Origin: Cyanophora paradoxa CCMP329
Lineage: Eukaryota > Plantae > Glaucophyta
Assembly: GCA_004431415.1 (NCBI GenBank)
Contig: QPMI01000033.1
Location: forward strand, 1-64,000
DNA length: 64,000 bases
Direction of reading: 5' to 3'
A program made the translations under genes and the position numbers. Under the pieces are notes generated by a model. That model saw only the letters and a list, made by a program, of their open reading frames with translations, made no database searches and was not told the origin of the DNA. Of the stretch, positions 3,633 to 64,000 are shown in pieces (position 1 is the first letter of the stretch; every line of letters starts with the position of its first letter).

Positions 3633-3664
<32 letters not shown>

Positions 3665-4523: not shown

Positions 4524-5527
4524 CCCGGGCCCGCCGCCCCGCTACCTCCCAGTTCGATCCCTTTCAAGCCAGCGTAGCTGTATCCATGTCCATGCATGCA
4601 GTTGCCTCGAGCTTCCGTTCGCTTTTTTATTCTGTGATTCGCGATTTCAGGGCTGCTTCTTTCGAATTTTCTAAAGAATTTTCCCGTCTCCGGTGCGGCT
4701 GGCTTAAAATTTGCCTCCGTGCCACCGGCACCGCGTCAGACTGTCAATTCGTTTCCATACTCGTATCTATCTATATATTATGTACCGAAAAGCCTCGCTT
4801 CCAGCGGCAGTTTTGCGGAACTTGAGTTCAAGCCAGTATTCAGCGTTGTGTACAATACGCAAGGTAGGACGGCAATATTTTATACAGCTGTGCAGTCCCT
4901 CACTGAGTCATTTGGACAGCTCGACATTCTAGATATTGTAGAGTGCCGCGGAGCGCCGTGACGCCCCATGGCCACTCATTTTCAGAGTCGCAGCTCGCGT
5001 AGAAAATGCATATTCATATGATGTCTCGAGATCCGTGCCATCATCAGAAGTCCACCCGAAAAAGGGCACTGCAGCATGCGCGCAACACTGGCTGGACTCG
5101 AGGAAATTCGAACAAGGATAGAATTTTAATTTCGAATTCAACATTAAGATCAAGAAGATTTTTTTAATCACTAATTCCTGTACATGCGGATGTTAGAGTC
5201 GATCTAGATCTCGCAATGAAAGCGCCAGAAGTACGAGTCGAAGGACGGTCGGACTGGGGGCCGCCAAACGAAAGGTACAAGACTAGGATCTGAAAGAATC
5301 GCGAAATTGAAGGCTACAAAAAAGTACATAGTTCGAGGGCGCACTCTATGCGACTGGAAACAGCGTGGTGGGCTCCGTGTGCCTCGATCGGCTTCCTACT
5401 GTGAAAGAACTAAACGTGGACGGGCTACTGCGCTCGCTCGCTCAAAGCGGGCGAGGGGCAAGATGTGGAGCTGTGGCGGCGGGTGGTATGGACATGGTGG
5501 GGCCCCGGGGGCGGGGGAGGCGGGGCG

Positions 5528-32000: not shown

Positions 32001-34913
32001 GTGAGGGAGGCACGATGCGAGGGCAGGGCGGGTGCGATGCGAGGGCAGGGCGGGTGCGATGCGGCGGCGGGCGCTCCTCTCTGGCGGCGTGCGCGGGCGG
32101 CGGACCTGGCGTGGCCGGTGAGGGCGACAATGAAGTGGCGGCGCCAGCCGCGCGCCCGCTCCAGCGCCCGGATCCGCCGCGTCGCCTCGAAGCCTGCGCC
32201 CCGCCCCCGCCCCGGTCCCCGCCGGCGCCCCGCGCGGGAGCACGGGCGCCGCGCGGCAAGGCGTCGCGGACCGTCCCTGCGCGCTCGACGGTTAGGCGCC
32301 GGCGGGTGGGCGGTGCGCGTCGGCGGGCGGGAGCACACATGACGGGCATGGAGCACTGCCGGCGACGAGGCGGGCGGGGCGGGGCCATCAGGGGCGGGCG
32401 GGGGCGGCGTGGGGCGGGGCGGGCGGCGGGGCGGTGGGCTCGGGGGCGCACGTCCATGAAGACGAGGTGGAAGCAGTCGGGCGCCCCCGCTGCCTCGAAG
32501 GCCTCCACCGCCTGCCCGCCCCGCCCCCCGCCTCCTCAGTCGGGGCGGGGGCGGGGCGGGGGCGGGGGCGGGGCGCGCCTCGCGGCCGTTGCGGGCCTCG
32601 GTCACGCGGTGGCCCTCCTTCTCGAGCATCGTGCGCAGCACGCGCAGGTTCCTGCCGCCGCCCTCCAGCCCCGCGCGGCGCGGGGCCGGCGGGGGCGGGG
32701 CGGGCGCACATGGCGTGGTCCTCCACGACAAGAATCGAGAGGGCGGCGGCCGCGGCGGGGCCGGGGGCGGGGCGGGCGACCCCCGGGCCCCCGCGGGAGG
32801 CCCCAGGGCTCGACGGCGCCGGGTGGAGGAGGGCGGAGGAGGCGGGGGCGAGGGGCGCGGGGGCGGGATGGCGCTCGGGGTGGCGGGGAGGACGGCGAGG
32901 AGCGAGGCGGGACGGGTGGCGAGGAGGGCGTCGGGGCGGGCCCGCCGGCCTCGAAGTCGGCGCGGACGGCGAGGGTCGCGGGGCTCAGCGGGGCCCCCCG
33001 GGGAGCGCCGCCCGCAGCGGCACCGTGAAGTAGAACGTGCTGCCGCGCCCCACCTGGCCAGCCCCGGCGGCCTTGTGAGGCGCGCCCGCTTCGCCCCGAG
33101 GGCGCCGCGCACCTCGCTCGCGCAGCCGATCTCCCCGCCCATCTTCGTCACGATCTCGCGGCTGATGGCGAGGCCGAGCCCTGCGGCCCCCGCTCGCGCC
33201 GGCCCCGGGGCGGGGGCGTCGGGTGGCGTGGCACCGGTGCAGCCGGGGTCGGCGCCGCGGGCGGGGTCGTGCTGCACGCGGTAGAAGCGCGTGAAGAGCT
33301 GCTGGCGCGCCTCCAGCGCGATCCCCGGCCCTGCCCGCACCGCCCCTCGGCGCTCGGCGCTGCAGGGCGCAGGGAGCGCGGGGGCGGGCGGGGCACCGGA
33401 GTCGAGGACGGCGAACTCGCAATTGAGGAAGCGCTGCGGGGCGCCGGGCTCCTCCACGCTCGGCTCCACGCCGGGCGGCCCGTGCTGCGAGGCCCCGGCG
33501 AGGTGGCCGCCGAGGGCCGGGGGGCGGCGGCGGCGAGGGCGGCGGCGCCGTGGACCGAGGCGTCCACGACGACGGCGTCGGCCGCCTCCGCCTCCACCGT
33601 CACCAGCACCTGCGCGGGGTCGCTCGGGCGGTGGCGGCCGGCCGGCGGGCAGGCGGGCGGGCGGGGCCGGGGGCGCGCCTCGACGGAGCCCCGCAGCGTG
33701 TACTTGACCGCGCTGCCGCCACCGGCTTCAGAGGCGCGGGGGAGGCGAGGGGCGGGGCCCACTTGGAAACGAGGTTGAGGAGGCACTGGCGCGTGCGGTC
33801 GGCGTCCCCGACGACGACCTGCGGGGCAGCGCGCGGGGCGCTCACGGGCGCCCCCCGCCGGCGGCTGCGAGCGGGGGCGGGGCGGACGGCGGGGACGTCG
33901 TCGGCGATGACGGCGGCGAGGAGGAGGCCCTTGGCGGACGCCCGCGGCGCCACGATCCGCACCGACGCCTCCACCTGCCGCCCCGCGCCCCGCCCCTCAG
34001 CGCCCCGCCGCGCCCGGGAGAGCGAGGGCGAGGCGGGCACGATCTCGGCGACGCGCATGGGCCCCGACTGGAGCTCGATGAGGCCGGCCTCGATCTTCTG
34101 CAGGTCCAGCACGTCGTTCACGATCGAGAGGAGGTGCTCTGCGGCGCGCGATCGCGAGGTGATCCACGAGGCGCGAGGGCGCTCCCCCGCGATCCCTCGA
34201 CCCCCCGCACCGCCCGAGAGGCTCGCCGCCTCGACGAATTCGGCCGCCTCCGCCGGCAGCGTGCAGTCGCGCGCCAGCTGCAGCATCCCCAGGATCCCGT
34301 TGAGCGGCTGCACCAGCCGGGGGGGTTGGCGACTCGTAGTCATTGGAGGTGCTGGCAGCAGGGCGTGGGGCGCGAGCGGGCGCACCGTGCGCATCTCGTG
34401 GGACATGGTCGAGATGAATTTGCGCGTCTCGTCGGCGCGCACCTCCATCTCGAGCTTCGTCTTGCGCTCCGCGAGGAGGGAGCGCATGAGCGCGAGCTCC
34501 GTGGCGCTCATCTGAGGCGCCGCGTCGCGACGAGGGCGCGGGGCGGGGCGGGGCGGGGCGGGGCACCTCGCGGAAGGCGGCGAAGCCGGAGCGCATGGCG
34601 CGGACGGCCTCCTCGAAGGCCTCGAGCTCCCGCAGGCCGCTCCCCAGCGCCACCGACTGCCGCGCCCGCGCCCCGCGCCCCGCCCCCGCCGCCCCGGCCC
34701 CTCCTCCCGCTCCCCTTCCAGTTCCGTGGGCGGGCAGGAGGAGGGGGAACCCACGCGAGGTCGCCCCATGAGGCCGGCGCCGCCGCCACGCGCGCCTCCC
34801 GCCGCAGCGCCCGCCGCGCCCGCCCGCACAGCCGCCCCAGCAGCGCCCCGGCGCCCCCGCGCCGTCCGGCGCCCCAGCGGCTTCTGCGGCTGCTGCTCCG
34901 GAGGGGCTGCGGA
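28696..34913 (+). repeat. Tandem segmental duplication, copy 1 (RHD3 3' end + intergenic + 3' part of the membrane histidine kinase)
   Basis: 28696-29769 matches 35441-36525 and 29770-34913 matches 38716-43973, with scattered substitutions and indels. Confidence 0.95.
30174..34913 (-). pseudogene. 5'-truncated duplicate of the membrane hybrid kinase (HisKA-HATPase-REC-REC, no sensor)
   Basis: Homology to the full gene stops at 34913/43973, downstream of the TM and sensor exons. Retains SHEMRTPLNGILG and both REC domains. Confidence 0.8.
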
Positions 34914-35242
34914 AGGCCCTATTTATTTAGCAGTCGGATTGCCGCAAGTGAACTGTGAACTGAACCTAGAAGCAGTTGATTTATATTATACTATGATTAT
35001 TCAAAGCCTTTCAAATTTTCGAAGTTTGCCTCGCGCTCTTCTATCCGATGATCGATTGTGATTCAATGATTATCATAGCTTGATAGAAGCCTTGCTAATA
35101 TTCATGCGCGCATACGTATACATTCCCCTTGATTATAACTAGGTTATATACAATTGGACCCCCCTCCCCCCTCCCCCCCCCCTTCCCTCCCCCTCCCTCC
35201 CCCCCCCCCCCCTCCCTGCCCCTCCCTCGAGCTCCCCTCCCC

Positions 35243-35416
35243 GAGCCGGCCGCGGCACGAGCGAGCGCCGCACAGACTTTCTGGAGCGCTGCTTCCTGCC
35301 GAGTGACCCGGCGGCCATAGCCCTTCTCAAGGCCGGGCCTGCCTCGGGCCGCCCGTACCTCACCACTGCATGCTAGCTGCCGACGTACGCGTACGCGTGC
35401 CGCCCGCCCCGCCGCC
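35243..35416 (+). pseudogene. Isolated, inverted, diverged copy of one PAP2 exon (cf. 50345-50490)
   Basis: gactttctggagcgctgcttcc..gggccgcccgtacctcaccactgc matches the reverse complement of the PAP2 exon DFLERCFPPSDPAA..., with substitutions and two insertions. Confidence 0.85.
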
Positions 35417-36525
35417 TCCCCCCCCCCTCCCCCCCCCCCCCCCCGCGCCTCGCGCTTTCCCGCTAGCGCGCTGCATCAGGTTCCTCTCGCCCAATGTCAA
35501 GTTCAACACGACTTTCTCGCTCCTCACTGCGATCAACCTCGGCCCCCGCCAGACCCTCGGTCAGCTCCCTTCTTTTGAAGCTTCCTCCCGCGCGCCCCTC
35601 AGGCTGGCGGCGGCGCGCAGGCATGCCGCTTGGCGACGACATCGTCGACTCGTCGCCCCTGCCGCCCAACAGCGTCTACTCGGACTCCAACGGCGATGCC
35701 GGCGTCAACCTCGACAAGGTGCCCCCCACGCCCAAGCCCGCGCCCTCTCGCCCGCGCCTTCTCCACACCTAATGGCGGCACCGTCTCCCAGATCGATTAC
35801 AGTGGCGGTGACAGCGCTTCTTCCCGTCTCGCGCCCTACTCGCGCAGCTGAGCGGCGGGATTTTTGTCTTGTGTGTGTGGCTATCCAATAGAGAGCAGGG
35901 CTTCTTTTCAGGTGCCAGTGCTCGCCGAGGCCTCGAAGAAGGGAGGGGGGGAGGGGAGAGAGAGAGAGAGAGAGAAGAATATATTTTCTTCATAAAGAGA
36001 GGGCCTGGCCCAGTGGAGGCTCAGCGGCTTACACAGAAGGGGCCCCGTATGGAATTGATGTATACATACTCTTCCGCAATCATTGAATGTATTCTTCGAC
36101 CCCCGCCGCAATGTGTACGTACTACGGTATTTCCCGACGCCGTGTTCGAATTCGCGATCGAGTGGATCATGGAGCGCGCGCAATCGAGATGCGCCCCGGC
36201 GGGCGCGTCGACGTCTCCAGACGCCGCGGCGCATATGCATTGATATCGATTGATACCGCACTGCGGCACGCATGTGTCAGAAGTGGTTTGTGCAGGCACA
36301 TCATGGCATGTACAGCGGCATGCGCACAGCTTGTCGCCGGCTCTCAGAGTCTGGTCTAAACTATAGCGCTAGCTAGCTCTCCGGATCCGTGCCTCTTATG
36401 CATACTATGATATGTACCGAACTAGTCTATAGCTATAGCTAGTGGTTAAGTAACGTACACTATACGTATACATGTGCATGTATTCGACATCGATGCATCA
36501 TGGCATGCGCAGACACTGAGATCTA

Positions 36526-38715
36526 AAAGAGCCACTGACTTGCCGCGCGCGTCAGTTGGGTCCGGGGAAGGGAATTTAATCATGTGAACGGGACTGTTGC
36601 ACTGCAGTGGCTTGCAATTGGCATTCACAGCGCGCACAAGACTCGCACAAAATGGGCGGGGGGGCTGCAGTTTGGCAGCCCCGTGCGGGACTGCACTGTC
36701 ACTGCACGGCCTTGGTCTTCTTTCCGCCCTTGGTGTCCTTGGACTTGGCGGCCTTGGGGGCCGCCGGCTTCTTGGTCTTCTTGCCCTTGGAGACGCCGGC
36801 GCCCAGGAGGCGCGCGGCCTTGGTGCCGAGGAGGCGGGGCGTAGCGAGGGCCATGAGGCCCTTCATGCCGGTGGCCTTCTTTGGGGCGGAGGCCGACTTC
36901 ACGACCGGCGCCTCGGCGGCGTCGAGCTCGGGCGCTGCCCCTCCTCGTCCGAGGAGACCTCGATGGGGTCGTCCCTGAGGGCAGAGCGGGTAAGGAGAGG
37001 GAGGAGGGGTGGGGAAGGGGGGGGGGGGGGGGGGGGGCGTGGGGGAGGTGGGGCGGGGAAGGAGACGGAGGGGCGGCAGACCCGGTGGCGGAGGCGTTGT
37101 CGGACTCGTCCGAGGAGATCACGGTGGCCTTGCGGCCACCCGAGCGGCGCTTTGGCGTATCCCTGCGGGCTGGGATTGAGGAGCGATGGAGCATCCGGGA
37201 GCAAGAAAGAGGGACGCACTCGTCGTCGTCCTCGGGCAGCTGTGGGGCAGGCAGGGCCGCAATCGGGGCAGGCGGGGCCGGCATCACCAGGCAGGACTTG
37301 GTGCCGGACCGCAGAGTGGCCGTGCCGTTCCTGCAGGGACGGCGGTGGGCACACGAAAGCAAACAGACGCGGGAGAGGGGTGGAAAGTGCCCACCGGAAT
37401 GCGTCGTAGAGGGCGTCAAGCGCCTGGGTCTTCTCGTCCTTGGCCGTGATCACGCACTCCCGAGTGTACTGCTGGGGGATGAAGTGGACGTGGCCATCTG
37501 GGGGAGAGCTCAGCAAGGGCAGACTGAGGCAGAGCACGGAGAGACCCACGAACCCTTAAGGTCCGACTCAAAGGTAGTGTAGACGACCTGAAGCTTGTCG
37601 CCGGCCTGGTAGTCGAGCTGGTAAACTTGGCTGCGGCCAGGGGACTTCTTGTAGGGATGGAAGGTTGCAGTGCACCTGAGCAGGAGGGGTCAAAACAGCA
37701 TCGGAGAGGCGGAGGGACCAGCAGAGGGACGCGCCCATCGGCGGAAGCAACCAGGACGTTGTGGAACGTGTATTGGTTCGAGTGGACGTACTCGCCCGGC
37801 AGGCACTCGAGGACGACGACCTCCGTGCCTGCGCGGAGCATGAGAGCGAGAGGGACGGCGCGGCGCCTGCAGAGGGCGCACTTGCGTTGCGTGGTGTGCC
37901 ACCACCTTCGCCGGGCCGAAGCGCACGAAGTGGGCAGCGCAGAGGTCACAGCCCCACACGTCTTTGCTGCCGGTGGCTTTGCTCTTCTGCTGACAGTCCC
38001 CGCACTCAGGCCGCTCGCTGAACGCGTGGGCGCCAGCTGCCCGGGTTTTCACGGCTGCGCTGCTTGCCGCCGGATGTCTACATCGCAGCACATGACTGTA
38101 AAGCGCGTCCCTCGTGCAGAAGTGCTGGCCGCAGTGCAGGCACTTGCCGCCGTACTTCTGCCTAGATCCGCCGCAGCCTGGCTGACTGCAGGGCTTGCTG
38201 GCCGCTCGATATCGACTCCGATGGCGATGCCCGGCGGTGGCTTCGCGCCGCCGCTGCCGCTCGGGCGGCCGGAGCGTGGGAGGCTCATTGCAGCGAGCGC
38301 GGGAGATCGTGCGGGTACCGCAAAAAGACTTTCCGCAGGGTAAGTTCGCACTCTCCAATGCGATTGGCTAGCACGCGCGGCGTCCTCCTACGCGACCGCG
38401 CTCGCGCCCGGCCTCGCTCTTGCAGTACGGAATGTCGGGCATAATGCAAGCATTGACCTCGAACTGGTCCGGCCCGTATATCTGCTCCATGTGCCTCGCT
38501 GGACCCCTTTTTGTCCCGGGTGTTGGTGCCTGTTCCTGGATCACCCTTTGGTCGGACGGGACCGGGAGACACGGTTTCGGGGTCCCCTGGGGATGGGCTT
38601 TCAAGTTTCAGCGTGTACCGCGCGGCCCGGGTTTTGCGGAGGTCGGGGAAATGGGATTTGGGGTAGGGTTGGGCCCGAGGGACAGGGACAGGGGAAGTGA
38701 TTTTCCCTTCCCCAA
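36526..38715 (-). mobile_element. Non-autonomous Helentron/Helitron2-like element
   Basis: Absent from the paralogous site (gagatcta|gaaatacg at 29769/29770) and no TSD. 11-bp asymmetric inverted repeat GGGGAAGGGAA (36564-36574 / 38703-38713), a 5' palindrome, and a 3' stem-loop at 36532-36559 followed by a T-run on the minus strand. Confidence 0.75.
36699..38490 (-). CDS. Element-borne spliced gene: Cys/His zinc-binding motifs + beta-rich domain + Lys/Ala-rich tail (5' end uncertain)
   Basis: CLHCGQHFCTRDALYSHVLRC, CGDC..CDLC; NVLVASADGCTATFHPY..YQLDYQAGDKLQVVY; C-terminus KKTKKPAAPKAAKSKDTKGGKKTKAVQ*. Confidence 0.5.
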
Positions 38716-39119
38716 GAAATACGCAAACCATTCAAGGATGAAAGCTTCGAATTCAATTGCAAGGCTTCAAAGGCGTAGTTGGAGCTAGAGATGAAAGTCG
38801 AGGTTCAAAGCTTGCAATTGAGAGGCGCTCGCGATCGCGATTGAATTGATTATTGGCAGAAGAAGTACTAGTACAGCGTTGAGGTGCTCAAAACGCGTTG
38901 AAATGGAGAAGACGCGTTTATCTACAAGAAAAGAAACTGCTCTGAAAAGAAAGGAATTTACAAGAAAGAAAGGCATGGGAGCGACGGAAATCAGAAAACC
39001 AGAGGCCAGGCCAAGGCGAAATAAAACCAGATGAGAGCAATGAGGGCGGCGGGGGGGCTTACAGGACCTCGACGCGAAGTTCGGAGGCGTCGGAGGCGGC
39101 GGCGGCGGTGGGGAGCAAC

Positions 39120-42100
39120 TCAGGCGGGGCGCTCGAGCGGCGCCCCGCCCGCCGCTCCCGCCCGCCCCGGCCGGCCCCGCACCGGCGCCGGGCCCACGGC
39201 AGCGTTCCCCGGCCATGACCGGATCGGAGGAGAGGCGACGCGGGGGGTCCGGCGAATGCGGCGGCCCCGGCGGCGGCGCTGCCGGCGCGGGGCTACCAGG
39301 GACAAGAGGGCTGCTCTTGCCGCTGCAGGGCCCGCTCGCAGCGCCGGCGGGGCCGGCGGCCGGCCCTGCGTTGCCGCCGCCGCACTTGGCGAGCATGGCG
39401 AGGATGCCGGCGCGCGTCTGGGCGGGGTCGGGGCGTGTGAGCGGGCGGGCCGGAGGGTGCGGGGCGGGACGGGGCGGGGCGGGGCGCTACGACGGGCTTG
39501 ACGAGGAGCTCCTGCATGCCGGCCTCCAGCACGTTCGCGTGGTCTGCCGCCCGCCCCTCAGCCCCGCACGCGGGTGTCGGCGCGGCGTCCGGCGCGCCCT
39601 GAGAGGAGGAGAGGGCGGTGCAGGCGACGATGAAGGTGCGGGGCGCCGCGCCGGGGCGCCCCCGCTCGAGCTCCCGGATGCGCCGCGTCGCCCCGATCCC
39701 GTCCAGCCGCGGCATCGACACTGCGCCGGCGTCAGGCGGCAGGCTCCGGGCGGGCGCACGGCCCCGCACCGTCCATGAAGACGATGTCGAAGGGGGCGGC
39801 GGCAGGCGCCCCCGGGGGTCCGGGGGCGGCGAGGCGGCGGGCGAAGACCTCCACCGCCTCCTCCCCGTCCTCCGCCACCTGCACCTGCGCCCGCCGCCCG
39901 CCCAGCGTCAAGCCCCCGGCGCCCCCTGAGGGCGCTCGCCGGGGCGGGTGGCCCCCCAGAGGAGAGCGCGGGGCGCACGCGGTGGCCCTCCCGCGCGAGG
40001 AGCGCCTTCAGCACGCGCCGGTTCATCGCTGCGGGGGGCGGCGGGGGCGGCGTGGGCGGCGTGGGCGGCGGGGGCGGCGGGGGCGGGCGGGGCGGGGACA
40101 CCGTTGTCGTCGACGACGAGGACCTCGAGGGGCGGGGGCGCGCCCCCGGCCCCGCCTCCTCCCGCTCCAGCGAGGCCCGCGCCGCCGGCGAGGCCGGCCC
40201 CAGCGCCCCCGCGCCCCGATCCCCGCCCCGATGCCGGCCCCCGCGCACTCGCCGGCCGAGCAGACGGAGAGGAAGCGCTCGCGGTCGCCCGCGTCGCTCA
40301 TCGAGGGCGGCGGGGTGAGCGACGGCGCCCACCGCTCGCCCCGCTCCGCCGCCCGCCGCCCCGCCCCGCCAGCCGGCGGGGCGGCCGCTTCTGCGAGCAA
40401 CGCAGTCGCGAGGGGCCCAGAAAGCGCCTCCGGCGGAGCCACCGAGGGCGCACCTTCGACGGCGGCCGGGGGGAGCTCGATCGGGGGCGGGCCCGGGGCG
40501 GCGTTGAGGGGCGGGGGCCGCCCGTCGGGTCCGCGCGAGGGCGGCGAGCACTGCGAGTCGGAGCGGACGCGCCGCAGAGTCGGCATGAAGAGCACCCGCG
40601 TCGAGGCCGCCGCGAGGGGCGTCGAGCGCGGCCGCAGGAGCGCCGAGGGGGAGGGCGACGGCGAGCGCTCCGGGCCCGAGCGCGGGGCGGCTCCCGTGAG
40701 GGCCTCAATCTGCGGCGCAGCCCGGCCCCGTAAGCTCGACCTCACGGCCGCGGAGGAGCGTTCCTCCGCAAAGAGCGCGGTGCCGACCGTCTCGAGGAGA
40801 ACGCTCTTCCGGATGGGTTTCGTGAGCTGCCCCGCCCCCCGGCGAGGGCGCGGTCAGGCGCGGGAGAGGGCGGGGGCGCGCGCCGGGGCGCGTGCGCACC
40901 CACTTGTCCATGCCGGCGCTGAGGCAGGCGGCGCCGTCCTCCGTGCTGGCGCCCCGGTGAGGGAGGCACGATGCGAGGGCAGGGCGGGTGCGATGCGGCG
41001 GCGGGCGCTCCTCTCTGGCGGCGTGCGCGGGCGGCGGACCTGGCGTGGCCGGTGAGGGCGACAATGAAGTGGCGGCGCCAGCCGCGCGCCCGCTCCAGCG
41101 CCCGGATCCGCCGCGTCGCCTCGAAGCCTGCGCCCCGCCCCGCCCCGGTCCCCGCCGGCGCCCCGCGCGGGAGCACGGGCGCCGCGCGGCAAGGCGTCGC
41201 GGACCGTCCCTGCGCGCTCGAAGTTTAGGCGCCGGCGGGTGGGCGGTGCGCGTCGGCGGGCGGGAGCACACATGACGGGCATGGAGCACTGCCGGCGACG
41301 AGGCGGGCGGGGCGGGGCCATCAGGGGCGGGCGGGGGCGGCGTGGGGCGGGGCGGGGCGGCGGGGCGGCGGGCGCGGGGGCGCACGTCCATGAAGACGAG
41401 GTGGAAGCAGTCGGGCGCCGCCGCCGCCTCGAAGGCCTCCACCGCCTGCCCGCCCCGCCCGCCCGCCTCCTCAGTCGGGCGGGGGCGGGGGCGGGGGCGG
41501 GGCGGGGCGGGGCGGGGGCGGGGCGGGGCGCGCCTCGCGGCCGTTGCGGGCCTCGGTCACGCGGTGGCCCACCTTCTCGAGCATCGTGCGCAGCACGCGC
41601 AGGTTCCTGCCACCGCCCTCCAGCCCCCGCGCGGTGCGGGGTGGGCGGGGGGCGGGGCGGGCGCACATGGCGTGGTCCTCCACGACGAGGATCGAGAGGG
41701 CGGCGGCCGCGGCGGGGCCGGGGGCGGGGCGGGCGACCCCCGGGCCCCCGCGGGGAGGCCCGGGGCTGGAGGGGGCCGAGAGGGGCGTGCGCGCCGTCTC
41801 CGTGCAGCCCCCAGCTGCGCCCTTGCTCGAGCGCGCCGAGGGTCGCGACCAGTGCGCGCGCCGCCGCCGCACCTTCGGAGGCAGGGCGGAGGAGGACGGA
41901 GGAGGCGGGGGCGGGGGGCGCGGGGGTGGGATGGCGCTCGGGGGTTGCGGGGAGGACGGCGAGGAGCGAGGCGGGCGGGGCGGCGAGGAGGGCGTCGGGG
42001 CGGGCCCCGCCGGCCTCGAAGTCGGCTCGGACGGCGAGGGTCGCGGGGCTCAGCGGGGCCCCCCCGGGGAGCGCCGCCCGCAGCGGCACCGTGAAGTAGA

Positions 42101-45100
42101 ACGTGCTGCCGCGCCCCACCTGGCCAGCCCCGGCGGCCTTGTGAGGCGCGCCCGCTTCGCCCCGAGGGCGCCGCGCACCTCGCTCGCGCAGCCGATCTCC
42201 CCGCCCATCTTCGTCACGATCTCGCGGCTGATGGCGAGGCCGAGACCTGCCGCCCCCGCTCGCGCCGGCCCTGGGGCGGGGGCGTCGGGTGGCGTGGCAC
42301 CGGTGCCGCCGGGGTCGGCGCCGCGGGCGGGGTCGTGCTGCACGCGGTAGAAGCGCGTGAAGAGCTGCTGGCGCGCCTCCAGCGCGATCCCCGGCCCTGC
42401 CCGCGCCGCCCCTCGGCGCTCGGCGCTGCAGGGCGCAGGGAGCGCGGGGGCGGGCGGGGCACCGGAGTCGAGGACGGCGAACTTGAGGAAGCGCTGCGGG
42501 GCGCCGGGCTCCTCCACGCTCAGCTCCACGCCGGGGGGCCCGTGGTGCGAGGCCCCGGGGAGGTGGCGGCCGAGGGCCGGGGGCGGCGGCGGCGAGGGCG
42601 GCGGCGCCGTGGACCGAGGCGTCCACGACGACGGCGTCGGCCGCCTCCGCCTCCACCGTCACCCGCACCTGCGCGCGCCTCGCTTGGGCGGCGCCGGCCG
42701 GCCGGCCGGCCGGCGGGCGGGCGGGGCCGGGGGCGCGCCTCGACGGAGCCCCGCAGCGTGTACTTGACCGCGCTGCCGCCACCGGCTTCAGAGGCGCGGG
42801 GAGGCGAGGGGCGGGGGCCCACTTGGAAACGAGGTTGAGGAGGCACTGGCGCGTGCGGTCGGCGTCCCCGACGACGACCTGCGGGGCAGCGCGCGGGGCG
42901 CTCACGGGCGCCCCCGCCGGCGGCTGCGAGCGGGGGCGGGGCGGACGGCGGGGACGTCGTCGGCGATGACGGCGGCGAGGAGGAGGCCCTTGGCGGACGC
43001 CCGCGGCGCCACGATCCGCACCGACGCCTCCACCTGCCGCCCCGCGCCCCGCCCCTCAGCGCCCCGCCGCGCCCGGGAGAGCGAGGGCGAGGCGGGCACG
43101 ATCTCGGCGACGCGCATGGGCCCCGACTGGAGCTCGATGAGGCCGGCCTCGATCTTCTGCAGGTCCAGCACGTCGTTCACGATCGAGAGGAGGTGCTCTG
43201 CGGCGCGCGATCGCGAGGTGATCCACGAGGCGCGAGGGCGCTCCCCCGCGATCCCTCGACCCCCCGCACCGCCCGAGAGGCTCGCCGCCTCGACGAATTC
43301 GGCCGCCTCCGCCGGCAGCGTGCAGTCGCGCGCCAGCTGCAGCATCCCCAGGATCCCGTTGAGCGGCTGCACCAGCCGGGGCGATTTGCGACTCGTAGTC
43401 ATTGGAGGTGCTGGCAGCAGGACGTGGGGCGCGAGCGGGCGCACCGTGCGCATCTCGTGGGACATGGTCGAGATGAACTTGCGCGTCTCGTCGGCGCGCA
43501 CCTCCATCTCGAGCTTCGTCTTGCGCTCCGCGAGGAGCGAACGCATGAGCGCGAGCTCCGTGGCGCTCATCTGAGGCGCCGCGTCGCGACGAGGGCGCGG
43601 GGCGGGGCGGGGCGGGGCGGGGCACCTCGCGGAAGGCGGCGAAGCCGGAGCGCATGGCGCGGACGGCCTCCTCGAAGGCCTCGAGCTCCCGCAGGCCGCT
43701 CCCCAGCGCCACCGACTGCCGCGCCCGCGCCCGCGCCCCGCCCCCGCCGCCCCCGGCCCTCCTCCCGCTCCCCTTCCAGTTCCGTGGGCGGGCAGGAGGA
43801 GGGGGAACCCCACGCGAGGTCGCCCCATGAGGCCGGCGCCGCCGCCACGCGCGCCTCCCGCCGCAGCGCCCGCCGCGCCCGCCCGCACAGCCGCCCCAGC
43901 AGCGCCCCCGGCGCCCCCGCGCCGTCCGGCGCCCCAGCGGCTTCTGCGGCTGCTGCTCCGGAGGGGCTGCGGAGGGAGCGGGCGGTGGCTGCCCCGGGGG
44001 GCCGGCAGCCTGGGGCGGCTCGCCGAGCTCGAGCTCGCGGGCGACGGCGGTCATCGTCTGCGCGAGCTGCACCATCGAGCGCCGCAGCGCCACCAGCGGC
44101 CGCGTGATCCGCACCCCCAGCGCCGCCGCCACGCACACGGAGAGCACCAGCCTGCCGCCGGGCCGGTGAGGGGGCGGGAGGGCGGGGCGGGGCGGGGCGG
44201 GGCGGGCGGGGCGGGGCGGGGCGGGCCAGAGGGAGTTGACGACGAGGTTGACAACGGTGGAGGCGTTGATCCCCGCCAGCAGCGTCCCCCGCGGCGCCGC
44301 AAGATACCTGCCCCGCCCCGCCCGCCCCGCCCTCAGCCCCACCCGCCCCCGCGCCGGGGGTGTGCGCGCACAGCTCCCACTCGAGGTTCGGGCGGCGGGC
44401 GACGGGGCGGCGGGCGAGGTAGTACGTGGCGCCCTGCGGGGGAGGCTCGTGCGGGGCGGGCGCGGGGCTCGTGCGGGGCGGGTCTGCGGCCGGCGCGGAC
44501 CTCGACGTCGGCGCTCGCAAGGCGGCCCTCGGGGCCCGCCGCCGCCCGCTGCGCCTCCTGCGCCACGTCAGGGCGCGGGGAGTCGAGGGGGCGCCTGGGC
44601 CTGCCTGGGCGATGAGGGAGCGGATGAGGGCGCCCCGGGCCTCCCCCGCCCCCGCGACCCTGCGGGGCGGCCCTCGGACGAGCGCAGCGGCGGGGGGCGC
44701 ACGGCAGAGGGAGGGGAGGGCACCCGCCGGGGGCGGCGGGGGCGGAGGAGGAGGCGATGAGCTGGCCGGCGGAGGAGACGAGGAACGCGAGCGAATCGGG
44801 CGTCGGGAGCGCCGCCCGCAGCTGCGCAGAGAGCGCCCCCGTATCCATCGCCGCCTGCAGAGCCGCGGCGACGTCGGGCCCCGCCCCCGCGCCTCCCCGC
44901 GGGGCCGGCGCACGGCGATCAGGGCGATGGTGGAGCCAAGGGGGTCGCCTGCCGGCCGCCGCGCCCCCGCCGCGGCCTCCGCCGCGGCATACCTGCCTCC
45001 GATTCAGCGCGGGGAGCGTGGGGAAAGGCGCGGCGAGGAGGATCCCCGCACCGCTCGCCCAGCGGCGCGGGGAGGCCGGCGGGGCGCGCCCCCGCGAGCC

Positions 45101-47436: not shown

Positions 47437-48965
47437 ATGGCCGCCTGGATCGACCTTCCAGACGCGATTCTTGGGGCTATTTTCGCGGCGCTGGGGCAGG
47501 GCGCCGATGCGGCCAACCTCGCGCTGTGCTGCAAGCGCAATGCCGACGTGTGGAGGAGCGCGATGTGGGATGAGGTCTCTATCGACTGCTCGCGCGGCTC
47601 TAGCCTGCGGTCGTACAAGCGCTACCTCGGAACATCTTCAGGCGGCTGCCCGCGCTCGCTTCACCTCGCAGTGCCGTGGCTCGTGGCGAACGACTTCCGC
47701 TGGAGTGAGCTTTCGCGGGTCGGGCATGCCGTGTGCTCCGCCGCGCAGCGCGCCGGGAGCCGCGGACCGGAGGAGATACGCGTCCGCCTGAAACACCTCA
47801 ACCCTTTCTCAGCGTTCTTGTCGAGGAGGGTGTCCGCGCTGCTCGCCTTGCTGGCATCGCAGGGCGGTTTAAGGAGGCTCGTCCTCCGCGCGCCGGAGGG
47901 CCCGGGGGCGGAACCCGCACTGGCCACGGTCTTCGCCTCGGGGCTCGTGGACCGCGCCGCCCCCGGAAGCCTTGCCGAGCTGGAGGATCTGGACACCGCA
48001 GGGGCCTTCTGGTTTGACGCGGACTCCGCGGGAATCGTAGGGGCGGCGGCCCCCGCGCTCGTCTCCCTGCGCGCGTCCGCGGGGCCCTGGGGGGGCGGGG
48101 CGGAGCTCCCCGGCCGCCCCGGCGTGCGCGTCTACCCCGACGACCTCCTCGGGGCCTTCGCGGGGCGCGAGCTCCGCGCGCTCTGGACGTCCCCGTCCTC
48201 GGCGCGCGACGGCCGCGCCCTCGTGCGCCTCGGGGCAGGCCTCGCCGAGGTGGCGGTGGCGGGCGGCCCCTGGGCCAGGAGCCTGGGGGCCTCGGGGCGG
48301 GGCTGTGCGCGGACGCTGGGGCGCTGGGGGCCATCGGGCGGCTCGAGGGCCTGGAGGAGCTCGACGTGGCGGTGCGCCCCGAGGACGCCGCCGCCCTCGC
48401 CGCCCTCGCCCCGCGCCTCCCGCGCCTCCGCTCCCTCGCCCTCTACGACCTCGGGCCCGCCGCCGCCCCCGCCGCGGCCCAGCCCCCGGGCGCCCTCCTG
48501 CGCGCCCTCGCCGCCCTCGCCGGGTCGGGGGCCCGCCCCCGGGGCCTCGAGTCGCTGCGGGCGGCCGTCCCCAACGCGTCGTGGGACGGGGCGGCCGCCG
48601 CGGAGCTCCTGCGCAGCCGCGGGGCGGCGGCGCTCGAGCTCCGCCTCGAGCACCGCGGGGAGGCCGTCCACCGGCTCGTCCCCGAGCTCGCCGGCGCCCT
48701 CGCCGAGGCGGCCGCCGGCCCCGCCCCGAGGCTCGCCGCCGCCTCCCTCGCCCTCCTCGCCGCCTCCCAGGACGACGCGCGCGCCCTCGAGTCGCTCGCC
48801 GCGGCTCTGCGCGAGCTCGAGGCGCCCCGCCCGCCCGCGCCCGCCGCCCGCCGCCCCGCCCTCGACATCCTCGTCCGCGCCGCGGACCCGGAGCTCGCCC
48901 CCTCGCTCTGCCTGATCGTCTGGCCCAACTGGGTTCGCATACGCCTCTCGAGCCCCGAACCCTGA
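47437..48965 (+). CDS. Intronless F-box / leucine-rich-repeat-like protein (one frameshift near the C-run at 48267-48270)
   Basis: N-terminal WIDLPDAILGAIFAAL..LALCCK F-box motif, then LxxLxL repeats (LRRLVL, LEDLD, LEELDV, LRSLAL). Confidence 0.7.
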
Positions 48966-49362: not shown

Positions 49363-51350
49363 TTCAGCGCGGGCCGATCAGGGGGCGGGGCACGCAGAGG
49401 AGAGGCGGGCAGGCGCACCGCCCCCGCTCTTGCGGACGGCGGGCAGGCCGTTGCCGGCGTGGGAGGAGGTGGAGGGGATGGCGGTCAGCTGCAGGGCCGC
49501 CGAGACGGGCGGGTCGTGGTGCAGGGCCGACATCTGAGGCCGGCCCCGGGGGCCTCAGCGCATCCCCGCCCGGGCCGGAGAGGGGCGGCGGGGCGCACGG
49601 CGTTGCTGCGGGAGAGCTCGAGGGCCCGCACGTAGTGCTCCTCGTGCACCTGCCGCCCGCGTCAGCACCGGCGGCGGCGCCGGCCGAGAGGGGCGGGGCG
49701 GGCCTTCTGCCAGCGCCAGGAGACGGCGCCCATGACCGCCCCGACGACGGCGCCCACCAGAACGTCCTCCACTGCGCCCAGCGGTCGGCGCAGGAACGGG
49801 CGCTGGCCGGGGCAAGGCGGGGCGGGCCGTGGTGGCGGGAGTCGCGGAGGCGGGAGGCGGCTATGAAGAAGGCCCCAAGGACGAGGGTCAGGGAGAGGAT
49901 CGAGCGCCAGACGTGCGGAAGGTGCCCCGCGTTCTGCCCGCACGCCCCTCAGCGCTCCACTCGCCGCTTGGGAGGAAGGGGGGGAGTGGCGCGGGGAGGG
50001 GTTAGGGAAGCGGGGGGGGGGGGGGGGGGGGGGGGGGGAGCCTGCGCGCCAGCTTGCGGACGACCTCGAAGAGGACCGAGTGGAAGAAGAGGCTGCGGGG
50101 GCGCCGGCTGAGCGGGCCGCGGGGCAGGCGAGGCGAGGCGGGGCGGGCGGGGCGCACGCGACGTAGACCGCGATGGTGAAGGCCGACGAGGTGTGCCCGC
50201 TGAAGAAGCCTGCGGGCAGCGAGGCTGACCGGCGCGCCACCTCGGCAGAGCGGCCCGGGGCGCACTCTTGCGGCCCTCGGTGATGACCTTCTTGTCCCCC
50301 AGGCACTGCGCTCGCAACCGTCGGGGGGGGGCGGGGGGGGGGGGGGCGGCGGGGCGGGCGGCACGTCGGCAGTGGTGAGGTACGGGCGGCCCGAGGCAGG
50401 CGCGGCCTTAAGAAAGGCTACAGCCGCCGGGTCACTAGGCGGGAAGCAGCGCTCCAGAAAGTCTGCGCGACGCTCGCTCGGGCCGGCTCGGGGCGCGGCG
50501 CGGCGAGCGGAGGGCGCGCGCCTGGGCGCAGCCGGCCGGCGGTCATCTTGACGATCTGCGGCGCGGCGGGGCGCCGGGCGGCGCGGCGTTGGCAAGCGGG
50601 GGGCGCTGGGGCCGCGCAGCTCTCGCACCTCGGTGAGAATGACGGTGGAGATGATCGCCAGCGCCAGCCCGTACGTCCAGACGTACGTGTAGTACAGGGC
50701 GCCCCCGATGTTGAGCTTGCGCCCGTTGGAGAACCCGCAGGGACCAAAGCTTGCCTGCGCGGCGCGGCGCGGGGGCTCGTCCGGAGGCGCCCCGCACGCT
50801 GCAAACCGCCGCACCTCGTGCACAAAGAAGAAGATGATTGCTGCGAGCCGGTTAAGAGCTGACGCGCGGTGCCGGACAAGCGCATTGGAACGCACGTATG
50901 AAAATGCCTCTACAAAGGCATCGGAAGGGAGTGCGGTATGTGTTAAGCAGGGCACGCCTGATCAGGGGATAATAACACATACGGGATAATAACAGCGGCA
51001 TCTGTGAAGGCAAAAGTGGGCAGTCTGAGTAAATCAAAGCATCCTCGATTCTCAAGCGAGCACGCACAGTGAACGCTGTCGTCCACGTGTTCGCCCATGT
51101 AGCGCGGGTCATCCCACCGGAATCTCCGTTCTGGCAAACTGCATGCAACGCTCAGCTTGTAGTAGCTAAGGCGGCTAGATGTCATGTCGCACTTGATCTT
51201 TTCAAAGGCGAGCATGCCGATGAGGATCACAGCCAGAAGCAGGAGCTGCAGAAGATTAGCTGGGCGGCGCGCAGCACCCGCGCGGCCGCGTCGCACCCAG
51301 TTCGGCAGGTGCTTAGTAAATGCTTTGGATGCACCGCCCTCCATCATCAT
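49363..51350 (-). CDS. PAP2-family lipid phosphate phosphatase (3' end approximate)
   Basis: C1 KMTAGRLRP-DFLERC, C2 EGRKS-FFSGHTS, C3 SRLRDSRHHVEDVLVG; multiple TM segments. Confidence 0.9.
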
Positions 51351-59199: not shown

Positions 59200-60213
59200 C
59201 CTATATAGGCTACGTACCACGCTACGAAACGCGCCTACTATGGAATGTGGAATCTGCCTTCTGATGTATATTTTTGCAAGAATGCAAAGCATTTCGAGGG
59301 CGCGAATTGAGGGGATCTGCTCTAGAGTGAAGGTCCTGTATTCTGCAAGATGGCGAGCGCTCTGGAGGCTACAGTACGCGTCTTCGGGTGAACGGAGGCA
59401 ATGCAGGCGGACAGGGGTCGGGGTCTCGGGAGGAAAGGGCTCGCGCTGGCGCGAGTCGATGCAAGTACGAGCACGGGCGGGGCGGCGCGGGGCAAAAAGA
59501 GGCGGGGAGAAGCGGGCTGCGTCAGCGGACCCAGGAGGGGACGGGCCGGCGCGGGGCGCGGGCGGATTGGCTCCAGTCCTCGCCCTCCCCCTCGCTCCCT
59601 TCGGCCTCGCCGCGGGAGCTCTCGCCGGGGGCCCCCGGCCCCGTCTGCGTCCCGATACCGGGCGCCGGCACCACCGTCACGCCCCCGACGGGCGACTCGG
59701 ACACCGTCTCCCCCCCGGTGCCGCCGCGCCCCCGCCCGCCCTCCCGCCGCGCCCGTGACGCCCCGCAGACGGGGCCGGGGGCCCCCGGCGAGAGCTCCCG
59801 CGGCGAGGCCGAAGGGAGCGAGGGGGAGGGCGAGGACTGGAGCCAATCCGCCCGCGCCCCGCGCCGGCCCGTCCCCTCCTGGGTCCGCTGACGCAGCCCG
59901 CTTCTCCCCGCCTCTTTTTGCCCCGCGCCGCCCCGCCCGTGCTCGTACTTGCATCGACTCGCGCCAGCGCGAGCCCTTTCCTCCCGAGACCCCGACCCCT
60001 GTCCGCCTGCATTGCCTCCGTTCACCCGAAGACGCGTACTGTAGCCTCCAGAGCGCTCGCCATCTTGCAGAATACAGGACCTTCACTCTAGAGCAGATCC
60101 CCTCAATTCGCGCCCTCGAAATGCTTTGCATTCTTGCAAAAATATACATCAGAAGGCAGATTCCACATTCCATAGTAGGCGCGTTTCGTAGCGTGGTACG
60201 TAGCCTATATAGG
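59200..60213. repeat. Long inverted repeat (fold-back): arms 59200-59649 and 59764-60213, 114-bp spacer
   Basis: The arms are reverse complements with no mismatch seen by eye; both outer ends are the self-palindrome CCTATATAGG. Confidence 0.95.
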
Positions 60214-60458
60214 TGGGCCTTTGTGAAGCGTTGAGCTCTCGAGCTTGCCCCTTCGCTGTCAATGCATTGTTAACCCTCGGAGGTTGCATGAGTCACGCGT
60301 CGCGGAGGTTTGGGTGTTATATTGCGATCAGGTACACGCTGCACTAACAGGGGGGCTAGCACTAACCGACGCGGGGAGTAACAGCCGGTGTACCCCTCGG
60401 GGGGCCTCCCGGCCTCTAACGATGCTCAGGCTCTAACTGAATGCTGTACCCCCCGCTG

Positions 60459-61198
60459 TTACTGCCCGAACCTTCCGAACTTGCGTAATTCGGCCTCGCC
60501 CTGTACCCAGTGGCTGGTGTCGTCCATCCATTCGCGTACCTCCCTCTGACGCTTGAGTGACTCACGCTGCTCGGGGGTAGGGGAGGGGGGGCCTTCGAGG
60601 CGGGGTGGGGAAGGGGGTACGGTGGCAAAATTCAGCCACTCGGGGGTATGCCGAATTCGCCGTGAACGATCCTCTGCGGTGTGAAATACCGGTCGCTGCT
60701 CACGGCCAAGTGGAAGAACGCGCTCCTGAGCCCGGAGAGGAAGCGTGGTTGCATGAATGGCTGCTGGAGGGACTCGTCGCGCCAGGGGGCTACGAAATCA
60801 ATGATACGCTGCTGTACCTGCGCGGGCAGGGCAAGGATCTGGCTCTTGCGGTTCGCAAAGGCCGTCCACAGCGCTTGCAGGTCGGCCCAATCGCCGTTCA
60901 GATCCCTGCGTTCGCGCCTCAGGTACGATCTCGGGTTCTCTGTCATACCCATCAAGCCCGCGGCCCTGATCATCTCCCTGTCCGGGAGCTCTCGCTCGTC
61001 GTGGAATTCGTCTCTAATCCAGCGCACAAGGTAGAGCACGCGCTCCATGAAGTTCTCCGCCGGCGAGCCGCCCCCTGAGGACGTGCGCCTCCCCTCCAGC
61101 ACTGCGTTCGCATCCTCCAAGTCCACGTTCCGCTGTCGAATCTCCCCGTCCAGGTCGCCGTTGTTGTACAGCACGTCGGACTCGCGTGTTCGCGCCAT
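60459..61198 (-). CDS. Unknown protein, paralog A (one frameshift at the G5 run 60642-60646)
   Basis: ORF 60632-61198 continues in another frame as PPEWLNF..GPPSPTPEQRESLKRQREVREWMDDTSHWVQGEAELRKFGRFGQ*, homologous to the C-terminus of paralog B. Confidence 0.65.
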
Positions 61199-61233
61199 GC
61201 TCGCGGCTCGGTGAGAATTTCTACCTGTACCCC

Positions 61234-61964
61234 CTACTCGCGGTCGGGGTATCGAGGGCCTGGCAGCCTCGCGCGCTTCCGCAGCTCGGCCTCGTCTGGC
61301 GACCAGCTCGTCGGATCATTGCTGTACTCCATCCACCTGCGAATCTGACCCTCCCGCAGTATCTCTTGGCGCTGCTCCGCCGTGGGCGCCGGTGGGCCGT
61401 ACGGTGGGCCGGCAGGCGTCAGTTTTCTATACTTGTATCTCTTGAACCGTTCTTCCATATTGTCTTGTTCTTCGTCCCATCCTTCAGGGATCAAATCCGA
61501 TGGGGGGACATAGGGTACCACCCATTCATCTTCCTTGTTTTTGGCGTGGTGAACGAAGCCTTGGAAGTAGTGCTTCAAAATATTGAGCGGGCGATTGATG
61601 ATCTCCGTGCGAGTGCCCGCATTCAGGAAGAGATCCAGTATAACTCTCTGAACGTCTTGGGGCAGGTAGGTCATGGGGCTCTTGCGCGAGCCGAACGCCC
61701 ACCAGAGCTTGCGAAGTTCATCGCGAACCCTGCCCATGTCGTCCCTGTGTTCGATTTCGTACACCGGCGGCTCATACGTTCGGATGTCTACCCTGGACCC
61801 GAGGCCTCTGCGTGCCACATCGCGCAAATACGTCGCAGCCATGCCCCGTCTCGCATTGTATTGGGGATCTCTTCTTTCACCCAGCCGATCAGCCCGTTTA
61901 CCTGCTTAGTGTAATCTCGGATGTACCCCGATAGCGGTGGGAGGGTAGTCTGATTATCAGACAT
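61234..61964 (-). CDS. Unknown protein, paralog B (one frameshift at the C4 run 61844-61847)
   Basis: Joining ORFs 61788-61976 and 61234-61842 gives a protein colinear with paralog A. Confidence 0.65.
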
Positions 61965-62014
61965 ATGCATTCGCACACATCAAGAAATTCTAAACGCTAC
62001 TGCGAGGCTAAGCT

Positions 62015-62680
62015 ATGCATACCGATACAGATTGCGAGACTTGCGAGAACTTACAACAGGGGAGCGCGGCGTGGCACGCGGCGCGCCGTGAAAAACTAAC
62101 TGCATCTAATTTTGCGGCTGCGTGCGGTATAAACCCCTGGAAATCCAGGGCCCGCCTGTGGGCGGAGCTAAGCGGGATAGCGGAGGAAAACAACTTTGAC
62201 AACCCTGCCCTAACCTACGGGCATGACTATGAGCCCTTCGCGGTCTCTCTCTACAAAACGTTGAACAATAACGTGGACGTGCAACATACTGGATTGCACG
62301 AACATAAGGAACTGCCCTTCCTGGCGGGGAGCCCGGACGGGCTAATCGGAAACGATCGCATACTCGAAATAAAATGTCCGTACAAACAAGAACTCTACGA
62401 CAAGGTTCCTACCTATTACATGACGCAGCTGCAAGGACTTTTAGACATAACGGGCCGCGAGTGGGCCGAACTTTTTTGCTTCACGCCTCTGCGCGTGCAA
62501 ACGTGGTACGTCAGACGGGACGAGAGGTACATCGAGCTCATGCGGCGGTGCTTACATCTATTTTGGTCGCACGTGAAGGCTGGAACTCCGCCCGAGCCCT
62601 ACAGCGATCGAATGAAGTCAGAGAACCTCAGCGAGGAGCAGGCGGCGCTGCGCGAGTTTAAGTCGTACGCCCTCCTCTAG
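62015..62680 (+). CDS. YqaJ-like viral recombinase / lambda-exonuclease family
   Basis: QGSAAWHAARREKLTAS, GHDYEPFA, LAGSPDGLIG, ILEIKCPY, YYMTQLQG: PD-(D/E)xK motifs of the family; intronless. Confidence 0.92.
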   Translation: MHTDTDCETCENLQQGSAAWHAARREKLTASNFAAACGINPWKSRARLWAELSGIAEENNFDNPALTYGHDYEPFAVSLYKTLNNNVDVQHTGLHEHKELPFLAGSPDGLIGNDRILEIKCPYKQELYDKVPTYYMTQLQGLLDITGREWAELFCFTPLRVQTWYVRRDERYIELMRRCLHLFWSHVKAGTPPEPYSDRMKSENLSEEQAALREFKSYALL

Positions 62681-62928
62681 TGTCCCGACCCTCTCAGATA
62701 TTAATTTAAAGATCTGGGAGGGTCGGGACACGTCTCTTGGTCAGACTACTTATGTACGCCCTCCTCTAGTGTCTCGACCCTCTCAGATATTAATTTAAAG
62801 ATCTGGGAGGGTCGGGACACGTCTCTTGGTCAGACTACTTATGTACGCCCTCCCTCCTCTAGTGTCCGGACCTTTCCAATAATCTATAAAGAAAGTAGGG
62901 AGGGTCCGGACACGTCTCTTGGTCGGAC
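62665..62928 (+). repeat. Three tandem 89-bp units, each containing a ~52-nt hairpin
   Basis: Units start at 62665, 62754 and 62843. Hairpin gtgtcccgaccctctcagat-loop-atctgggagggtcgggacac; the third copy is diverged. Confidence 0.92.
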
Positions 62929-63207
62929 TCACCGTAGCTTGGTGTAGCTCAGGCCCAGGCGGGGAAGGCGAGTCTGCAATGAATCAGACCCCACAGGATT
63001 TGGTTGAGCTGCTCTTTGCAGGGGGGCAGGAAGGCGGCCGCAGAGGGCTAGGGAGACTAGATCTAATTAGTAATCCCACACCGCGCATGTGCAAGCGACA
63101 GAGAACGAAGTGAGTAAATGCAGATCGATGATACGGCAATCATGAGTTGTTCAGAAAAGGTCGGGACACATAGAGAGTGCATGCCCTCACTCTCGTCCGC
63201 CCTCGCA

Positions 63208-63260
63208 ATGTCCCGACCCTCCCAGATCTTTAAATTAATATCTCAAAAGGTCGAGACATT
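63208..63260 (-). terminator. Inverted copy of the same hairpin, putative 3'-end signal of the minus-strand gene (half copy at about 63155-63178)
   Basis: Minus strand reads atgtctcgaccttttgagat-attaatttaaag-atctgggagggtcgggacat. Confidence 0.55.
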
Positions 63261-63359
63261 CATTGATCATATGCATGACGTCACTTGAATTCGCACGTTC
63301 GTATTTACACACTGGCACGCGCATCCCGTTCGCGAAGTCCACACTGTGACATCCGACAA

Positions 63360-64000
63360 TCACACGCGCCTGTGAATGAGAGCATAGCAGTCGGAGAAAA
63401 CGTTGTAAACCTCTGGGAAGCTTGGCGCCATGCCTGCCCTTGCCTGCTTAGCCTGGCGCTCTACTGCGTCGTCGAGCATGTCTTCCTCCCACGTGATGTA
63501 GCGTCGCTTTCGGCTGCCCATTTGCCCTCCGTCCGCGTCGGAGAAAGCGCGTCTCACTCCGAGGTACTTCTCCAGCAGGTACTTGATGACTTGCCAAGAC
63601 TGCTGCGAGAGCCGCTTCTTCTCACCGTCCGCTGCATCGAAGCGGGGCGCGCGCTCGTCCAGACTCTGCAGAGCCGCGTACGCCTCCCGACCCTCCGGCG
63701 ACGCCAGGGCCGCGTAGGCTTCGTCCGACCACAGAGCACGCCCGCGAGCTTTCCATACCCCCGCCAGCCGAAGAGTTTCTTGAACAGCGCGACGACCTTC
63801 GATACCTTGAGGCGCTCAGCAGTAGGCACGATCTCGGCAACGTCCGCGCCATGCTTCAGCACCAGCGTGACCACGGCAGTGAGCGGGATGGAGTAGAACG
63901 AATCCCACATCCAGGCGACGTCTCCTTCGGTCAGCTCGCTCGGATCCTTGGCCAGGAACGCGGCGATCGACGTGCGAGCAAGCGAAGCAACCTTCTCGAT
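63360..64000 (-). CDS. C-terminal part of an intronless protein entering from outside the window (frameshift at the C5 run 63758-63762)
   Basis: Open from the window edge (IEKVASLARTS..VVALFKKLFGWRG), then VWKARGRALWSDEAYAAL..QVIKYLLEKYLGV..HRRV*. Confidence 0.6.

Follow-up and report, generated by a model that had tools for sequence, protein, structure and literature searches.

The last 3.8 kb of a 64,000-nt stretch from the glaucophyte Cyanophora paradoxa CCMP329 (contig QPMI01000033.1, positions 1 to 64,000 of the forward strand; hereafter the window) hold an island of compact genes (60214-64000) that is real and multicopy and is likely an endogenous viral element. From left to right the island contains two orphan open reading frames on the minus strand (ORF A and ORF B), a YqaJ/lambda-exonuclease-family nuclease on the plus strand, a cluster of four palindromes and, cut by the window end, ORF D on the minus strand, which is the C-terminus of a UL9-type origin-binding superfamily 2 (SF2) helicase (hereafter OBP); a 1014-bp fold-back element adjoins it on the left. 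With 1-60213 as the host reference for composition, the abrupt break described in an initial annotation of this DNA is borne out: GC content is 57.6% in the island and 71.0% in the host part, none of 226 host windows of equal length is as low (the lowest has 61.7%), and the intron-type words CCCGCC/GGCGGG, at 9.7 per kb in the host part, drop to 1.3 per kb in the island. The last host genes before the break are syntaxin-like and PRPS-like exons, both with Pfam matches slightly below the cut-offs. Two companion claims stand in part. Enrichment in ATA, CTA and TTA codons is confined to YqaJ (13 of 221 codons), the figures being 1/188, 2/202 and 0/212 for the other three ORFs and 1/154 for three host exons; and the ORFs lack introns on their sense strands, but two GT..AG introns are spliced from an antisense plus-strand RNA.

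The YqaJ gene (62015..62680) is intact and encodes 221 aa. The initial call of this family was sound: the protein matches PF09588 (E 1.1e-29, 104 bits against a cut-off of 22) and phrog_434 (E 4e-40), and retains the motifs Q-G-S, E, SPDG, EIKCP and Q, which show little or no variation in the family alignment. ORF D (63360..64000, with a gap at 63740) supplies the last 212 aa of the OBP. It had been left as an unknown gene, and is identifiable because protein P0115 both contains the window pieces, which are identical to it from residue 438 to the end, and overlaps through its residues 1-247, at 99% identity, protein P0127, which matches Pfam Herpes_ori_bp (PF02399; E 2.4e-7, 29.7 bits; P0128 scores 22.5 bits; cut-off 20). 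The family match is thus reached through the P0115/P0127 overlap, the helicase N-terminus lying outside the window. SF2-type motifs are visible in the OBP alignment, and the best Foldseek matches of the poor OBP model (pLDDT 37) are origin-binding/primase helicases of nucleocytoplasmic large DNA viruses (NCLDV), at E 3e-5 to 8e-4. The C-terminal piece of ORF D finds 10 proteins among 683 candidates, all the named ones from Cyanophora paradoxa, and divergent OBP alleles in the same proteome share 45-81% identity; PDB sequences contain no OBP match. One further candidate, P0129, is an insect repeat protein and is rejected as a false OBP match. The gene model P0127 (tig00000983_g5898) opens with sequence antisense to YqaJ before it runs into the OBP N-terminus, which suggests that this copy is arranged head-to-head, opposite to the tail-to-tail order in the window. 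As the initial annotation held, Pfam and phage-family profile searches find no capsid, polymerase or integrase family among the island ORFs, and the window, having no capsid gene, does not allow the class to be assigned.

The interval between the converging YqaJ and OBP genes contains the four palindromes, each of 50 bp; three are in tandem and one is inverted. The tandem units of 89-93 bp (62665..62935) carry palindromes at 62681-62730, 62770-62819 and 62863-62912, while a half-site and the fourth palindrome (63209-63258) occupy 63159..63258 in inverted orientation. Each consists of GC-rich inverted boxes, TGTCC(C/G)GACC, round a core of 81-94% AT; the longest stem has 21 pairs, against at most 13 in shuffled sequences (0/60 reaching 21), and one box is common to about nine half-sites. 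Contigs show the same palindrome, variants of it and arrays with a 36-nt spacer in other contexts. The 18-base palindrome pattern has no match in viral contigs, and there is no match in Rfam. Because UL9 of herpes simplex virus 1 (HSV-1), itself an OBP, binds inverted boxes flanking an AT-rich spacer (excerpts of PMC12543377), the palindromes can be read by analogy as candidate OBP origins with an anatomy like that of oriS, a reading with about an even chance of being correct. It is rather unlikely that they are instead repeats that only form transcript 3'-end (polyadenylation) hairpins as in Mimiviridae, for which a hairpin rule has been described (PMC4402537, excerpts). The YqaJ stop codon is followed immediately by the first palindrome, 100 bp separate the OBP stop from the fourth, and the two genes converge, all of which would suit such hairpins. 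The Mimiviridae hairpins are, however, described in the same excerpts as not conserved in sequence, whereas those of the window share one box, recur elsewhere as spaced arrays and have no counterpart behind ORF A or ORF B.

Read depth and other copies of the element, both named as checks in the initial annotation, give answers that agree. Four sequencing runs were compared: X1 and X4 are DNA, none of the runs listed is recorded as RNA, and X15 and X17 are treated as RNA solely because they contain GT..AG joints that X1 and X4 lack; the depths of X15 and X17 are not used for ranking genes. In the two DNA runs the depth of single contigs is 242-267 on the arm of the adjoining palindrome, 4550-5307 on ORF A, 1627-1880 on ORF B and about 4000 on ORF D, and YqaJ reaches about 7500 when summed over its variants. 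Island contigs are therefore deeper than the arm by 7-22 times, or by up to 31 times with the YqaJ variants summed; these ratios are relative to the arm, which itself represents at least two copies, rather than to a single-copy gene, and contig depth is not equal to copy number. We infer tens of copies in the genome, and counts in the host proteome, where many YqaJ and OBP gene models are present, are in agreement: there are at least 14 near-identical YqaJ models on at least eight named contigs, and the first 60 residues of the window OBP piece are unchanged in 20 of 136 collected proteins (at least 20 distinct models in the proteome). YqaJ and OBP are also neighbours elsewhere (tig00000471 g1179/g1180; EukProt P025120/P025121; tig00000983 g5897/g5898), and comparison of contigs shows that copies swap alleles at three slots, those of ORF B, YqaJ and OBP.

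All four runs have one extra base relative to the window at 60641, 61843 and 63740. The window form is seen in no contig at the latter two positions; at 60641 the extra base accounts for about 30-45% of the summed DNA depth and for all of the RNA-like depth, and eight proteome models read straight across the gap at 63740. Errors of assembly most likely account for the three 1-nt frameshifts (one each in ORFs A, B and D), and therefore the window copy need not be decayed. The frameshifts were overlooked in the initial annotation, as were the OBP identity of ORF D, the hairpin cluster and the 1014-bp palindrome. The multicopy state and the linkage of YqaJ to OBP largely refute a vertically inherited host gene cluster; although the genes occur in the host proteome and are covered by the RNA-like runs, the GC break, the lack of sense introns, the high copy number, the orphan neighbours and the viral type of helicase make such a cluster extremely improbable.

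The best matches of the window YqaJ protein are Cyanophora paradoxa models (69 of the 168 candidates listed), with 92-95% identity. Its only close relative outside is a protein at 65% identity on an ENA contig of 1912 bp (P0002), possibly the trace of a related element in an environmental sample. A scan of viral contigs with the single protein gives one distant locus, and a metagenome scan gives 19 loci from 191 stretches, at 28-48% identity, none of them close. For phylogeny, a viral set was assembled from 600 matching stretches (585 confirmed, the best 80 kept); a quick tree has 153 rows and a careful tree 51 hand-chosen rows, with 102 left out. As the rows include no named eukaryotic cellular YqaJ, these trees address vertical descent only indirectly. 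In the quick tree the Cyanophora proteins form a long branch together with one ENA protein. One clade has an NCLDV-type capsid or A32 ATPase in 28 of 28 loci, six of which were used to build the search profiles, and appears to be mriyaviral, to judge from the major capsid protein (MCP), A32 and VLTF3 genes on its short contigs. L002, L006, L008, L017, L020, L029 and related entries are IMG/VR contigs of about 20-43 kb with an NCLDV-type capsid and A32 ATPase beside a YqaJ-like nuclease, VLTF3 being present in L002, and are likely mriyavirus-type genomes. The phylogeny that the initial annotation had looked to thus groups the window gene with phage and small-NCLDV sequences but does not fix its class: by sequence it is a YqaJ gene of phage or virus type.

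We favour, with somewhat better than even confidence, the reading that the island represents the left portion of a single copy of a multicopy, likely virus-derived integrated element, likely a mriyavirus-like small relative of giant viruses whose OBP would act on oriS-like palindromes; membership in Mriyaviricetes is plausible. In its favour are the occurrence of UL9/R8-like SF2 helicases and a phage-derived PDDEXK nuclease in mriyaviruses, the Mriyaviricetes-related regions of a Glaucocystophyceae assembly and the oriS-like anatomy of the palindromes. Several points weigh against it. The careful tree places Cyanophora YqaJ outside the small-NCLDV clade (100/98) and among phage sequences, as an unstarred sister group (92/92), though its union with that clade is not rejected (p-AU 0.31). 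No OBP relative from outside Cyanophora paradoxa is found among 1.84 billion representatives (six matches, one unrelated), OBP scans of viral contigs and phages are empty, and our own profiles run over the ORFs of 81 viral loci find no OBP next to YqaJ. SF2 helicases occur in only a subset of Yaraviridae, where they come with an archaeo-eukaryotic primase (AEP), according to excerpts of PMC11253617; no primase family is matched on P0128 or P0131, models that look chimeric or incomplete. No capsid, ATPase, VLTF or HUH gene lies within the window, which covers 3.8 kb of the island; the palindromes sit just behind both stop codons, where 3'-end signals would be; and none of the 32 contig pieces listed of 881 bridges 60213/60214.

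Some of these points suit two other origins. The element could be a mobile replicon of viral descent that lacks a capsid, or a Polinton-like virus (PLV), using an OBP helicase to copy and re-insert itself and having no relation to mriyaviruses: only replication and recombination genes are seen, single slots swap alleles between copies, YqaJ is not nested in the small-NCLDV clade, and PLVs and adintovirus-like contigs are reported in Cyanophora paradoxa (excerpts of PMC12220804 and PMC8502044). The fold matches of the OBP are to NCLDV proteins, which counts against this origin, and we consider it unlikely. Less likely again is an amplified fragment of a giant endogenous viral element (GEVE). 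YqaJ and OBP-type helicases are common in Nucleocytoviricota, and GEVEs are reported from this alga (excerpts of PMC12344493); but a small mobile unit fits better with the many dispersed, nearly identical copies that keep one local gene order, and Cyanophora YqaJ does not group with row L041, which derives from a giant virus metagenome-assembled genome.

If the element is instead the mriyavirus-like provirus that we favour, its replication can be sketched from HSV biology and from the YqaJ family. The UL9-type helicase would bind the neighbouring oriS-like palindromes and melt their AT cores, starting DNA copying, and YqaJ would resect DNA ends for recombination-dependent replication or for integration.

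ORF A (60459..61198, minus strand) encodes about 246 aa with the 1-nt gap at 60641 read as N; its 188-aa window form is identical to a EukProt proteome entry and falls into one cluster with a Cyanophora paradoxa model. ORF B (61234..61970, minus strand; about 245 aa with the gap at 61843 read as N) is a variable slot that differs or is absent in other copies, a joint at 61234-61960 skipping it altogether. The two orphans are paralogues: BLASTP aligns 105 aa at 30% (E 2e-7) and, with the C-terminal piece, 39 aa at 41% (E 1e-6). A third paralogue, in which 41 aa align at 37% (E 3e-8), is fused to OBP in the gene model P0120. Among 1340 candidates no homologue of ORF B is found at E<=1e-3. A profile of ORFs A and B against 6560 ORFs gives a best match of only E 0.45, and so there is no sign of these genes as neighbours common to small-NCLDV contigs. 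ORF B has a weak, helix-rich, F-box-like LP..V...I motif, and Atlas F-box clusters appear for it at just 0.81 and 0.78, which are leads below 0.9; the Pfam F-box is not matched in either ORF at E<=1, and a fold search with the poor AlphaFold model of ORF B (pLDDT 41) returns no match. Between ORF B and YqaJ, whose start also varies between copies, a short segment (61956..62003) is common to copies with different left neighbours, with loose contig ends before 61956 and joints at 61234-61960 and 62003-62052; it is a putative divergent promoter region for the two genes.

The antisense RNA to ORFs A and B runs on the plus strand and has two GT..AG introns. The joint of the first (61211..61266) occurs in X15 and X17 and is absent from X1 and X4; that of the second (61607..61665) occurs in X17 only, with 255 letters on its short side. 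A hidden plus-strand gene on this spliced RNA is rejected, there being no ATG-started frame longer than 93 codons before YqaJ. A bolder form of the favoured reading, which is possible but tentative, is a still-mobile, polymerase-less, giant-virus-related provirus with herpes-style initiation, in which each divergent OBP allele would have its own oriS-like palindrome cassette immediately behind its gene and the antisense RNA, spliced by the host, would restrain the integrated copies. If true, origins would for the first time be mapped for the UL9/R8-type helicases of Nucleocytoviricota. Many giant viruses and some mriyaviruses have UL9-like helicases, and among the literature matches listed binding sites are given only for herpesviruses; a culturable alga with dozens of copies, several OBP alleles and palindrome variants makes helicase-origin specificity testable.

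Left of ORF A, a non-coding part of the multicopy unit (60214..60458) contains short direct repeats, for example GCACTAAC and TGTACCCC, each present twice; a loose contig end at 60286 in X4 reflects a variant in other copies, and the true end of the unit may lie further left. The initial annotation took 60214 for the left end of an integrated DNA virus or plasmid-like element. An integrated, multicopy, DNA-virus-like element is supported, but the position of its end is only approximate: depth rises within the bin 60095-60229, and multicopy depth begins somewhere in 60182-60214 or earlier. The adjoining fold-back element (59200..60213) consists of perfect arms of 450 bp round a 114-bp spacer, each outer end carrying CCTATATAGG, with 51% GC in the outer 200 bp of the arms, 76% in their inner part and 83% in the spacer. 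This 1-kb palindrome was considered as a viral terminus and rejected on its low depth (242-267 against 1600-5300 in the island), and it is probably separate from the island. Contigs of the arm match the window without differences up to a branch point near the arm's outer end; in three runs they stop at 60211, and one of them goes on into 125 unrelated letters, suggesting a further insertion site with a TA-type target. The low-copy fold-back element is possibly a miniature inverted-repeat transposable element that targets TA and has at least one more site, or else a fold-back duplication made at integration; if it jumped into the provirus, the true end should lie between 58812 and 59199.

A genuine element could also have been joined to the host locus by mistake during assembly, giving a chimera at the 1-kb palindrome. 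Assembly across perfect palindromes is difficult, the window contains uncorrected 1-nt errors, and the junction is unbridged in the contig pieces listed, as noted above. The arm contigs nevertheless agree with the window and stop at the branch point, and the dozens of copies in the proteome require that the element be joined to host DNA somewhere; a chimera is accordingly very unlikely.

Elsewhere in the window, 28600-44000 consists of near-identical tandem segmental duplications (94-100%, at spacings of about 6.7 and 9.0 kb) with intron-rich genes, apparently hybrid histidine kinase/response regulators. Two 117-nt segments 15 kb apart (35253-35369 and 50369-50485) form an inverted repeat pair, 91% complementary, that is possibly a small dispersed repeat, and a long intronless-looking ORF at 47437-48915 starts with an F-box-like N-terminus.

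Endogenous small DNA viruses of Cyanophora paradoxa are already in print or preprint, and the island itself is unsurprising; what the window adds is the recognition of ORF D as an OBP, candidates for its cognate origins, orphans that are paralogous and have antisense splicing, and a left end that is uncertain. The main text of the genome paper (PMC6704402) does not use the words "virus" or "viral", while a preprint (10.1101/2025.04.19.649669, excerpts) describes Mriyaviricetes-related regions embedded in a Glaucocystophyceae assembly. The PLVs reported in this alga have the same host as the island and are likewise multicopy integrated DNA viruses. They differ in that the window holds no pPolB, rve integrase, tyrosine recombinase or PLV capsid and in that the OBP and YqaJ pair goes unmentioned, the word YqaJ being absent from the texts of PMC12220804 and PMC8502044.

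Mriyaviruses have genomes of 35-45 kb without polymerases, which encode MCP, ATPase, VLTF2/3 and HUH proteins together with a phage-derived PDDEXK nuclease and an SF3 or UL9-like SF2 helicase (excerpts of PMC11253617); another source (10.64898/2026.06.19.733378, excerpts) says that they are without integration genes. The island resembles Mriyaviricetes (Yaraviridae and "Gamadviridae") in its phage-type PDDEXK/YqaJ nuclease and mostly orphan genes, and some Yaraviridae in that its OBP is a UL9/mimivirus-R8-like SF2 helicase; cognate palindromes are not described in the excerpts of PMC11253617. It further differs from Mriyaviricetes in a YqaJ that lies outside the nuclease clade of the sampled small NCLDV-type contigs, in OBP models, themselves imperfect, on which no AEP domain is detected, and in being multicopy and integrated. 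The primase/origin-binding helicases of Harvfovirus, Catovirus and Pyramimonas orientalis virus are the best Foldseek matches of the OBP model, at 10-13% identity and TM-scores <0.2 with a model pLDDT of 37, and all three viruses are large in genome size and encode a polymerase of their own. HSV-1 offers another parallel, since UL9 belongs to the same SF2 origin-binding family (PF02399) and oriS likewise has inverted boxes round an AT-rich spacer (PMC12543377, excerpts). The box sequences differ (TGTCCCGACC versus GTTCGCAC), the C-terminal domain of the island OBP has neither detectable UL9 similarity nor the RVKNL motif, and in the island four tandem palindromes stand directly behind the helicase gene.

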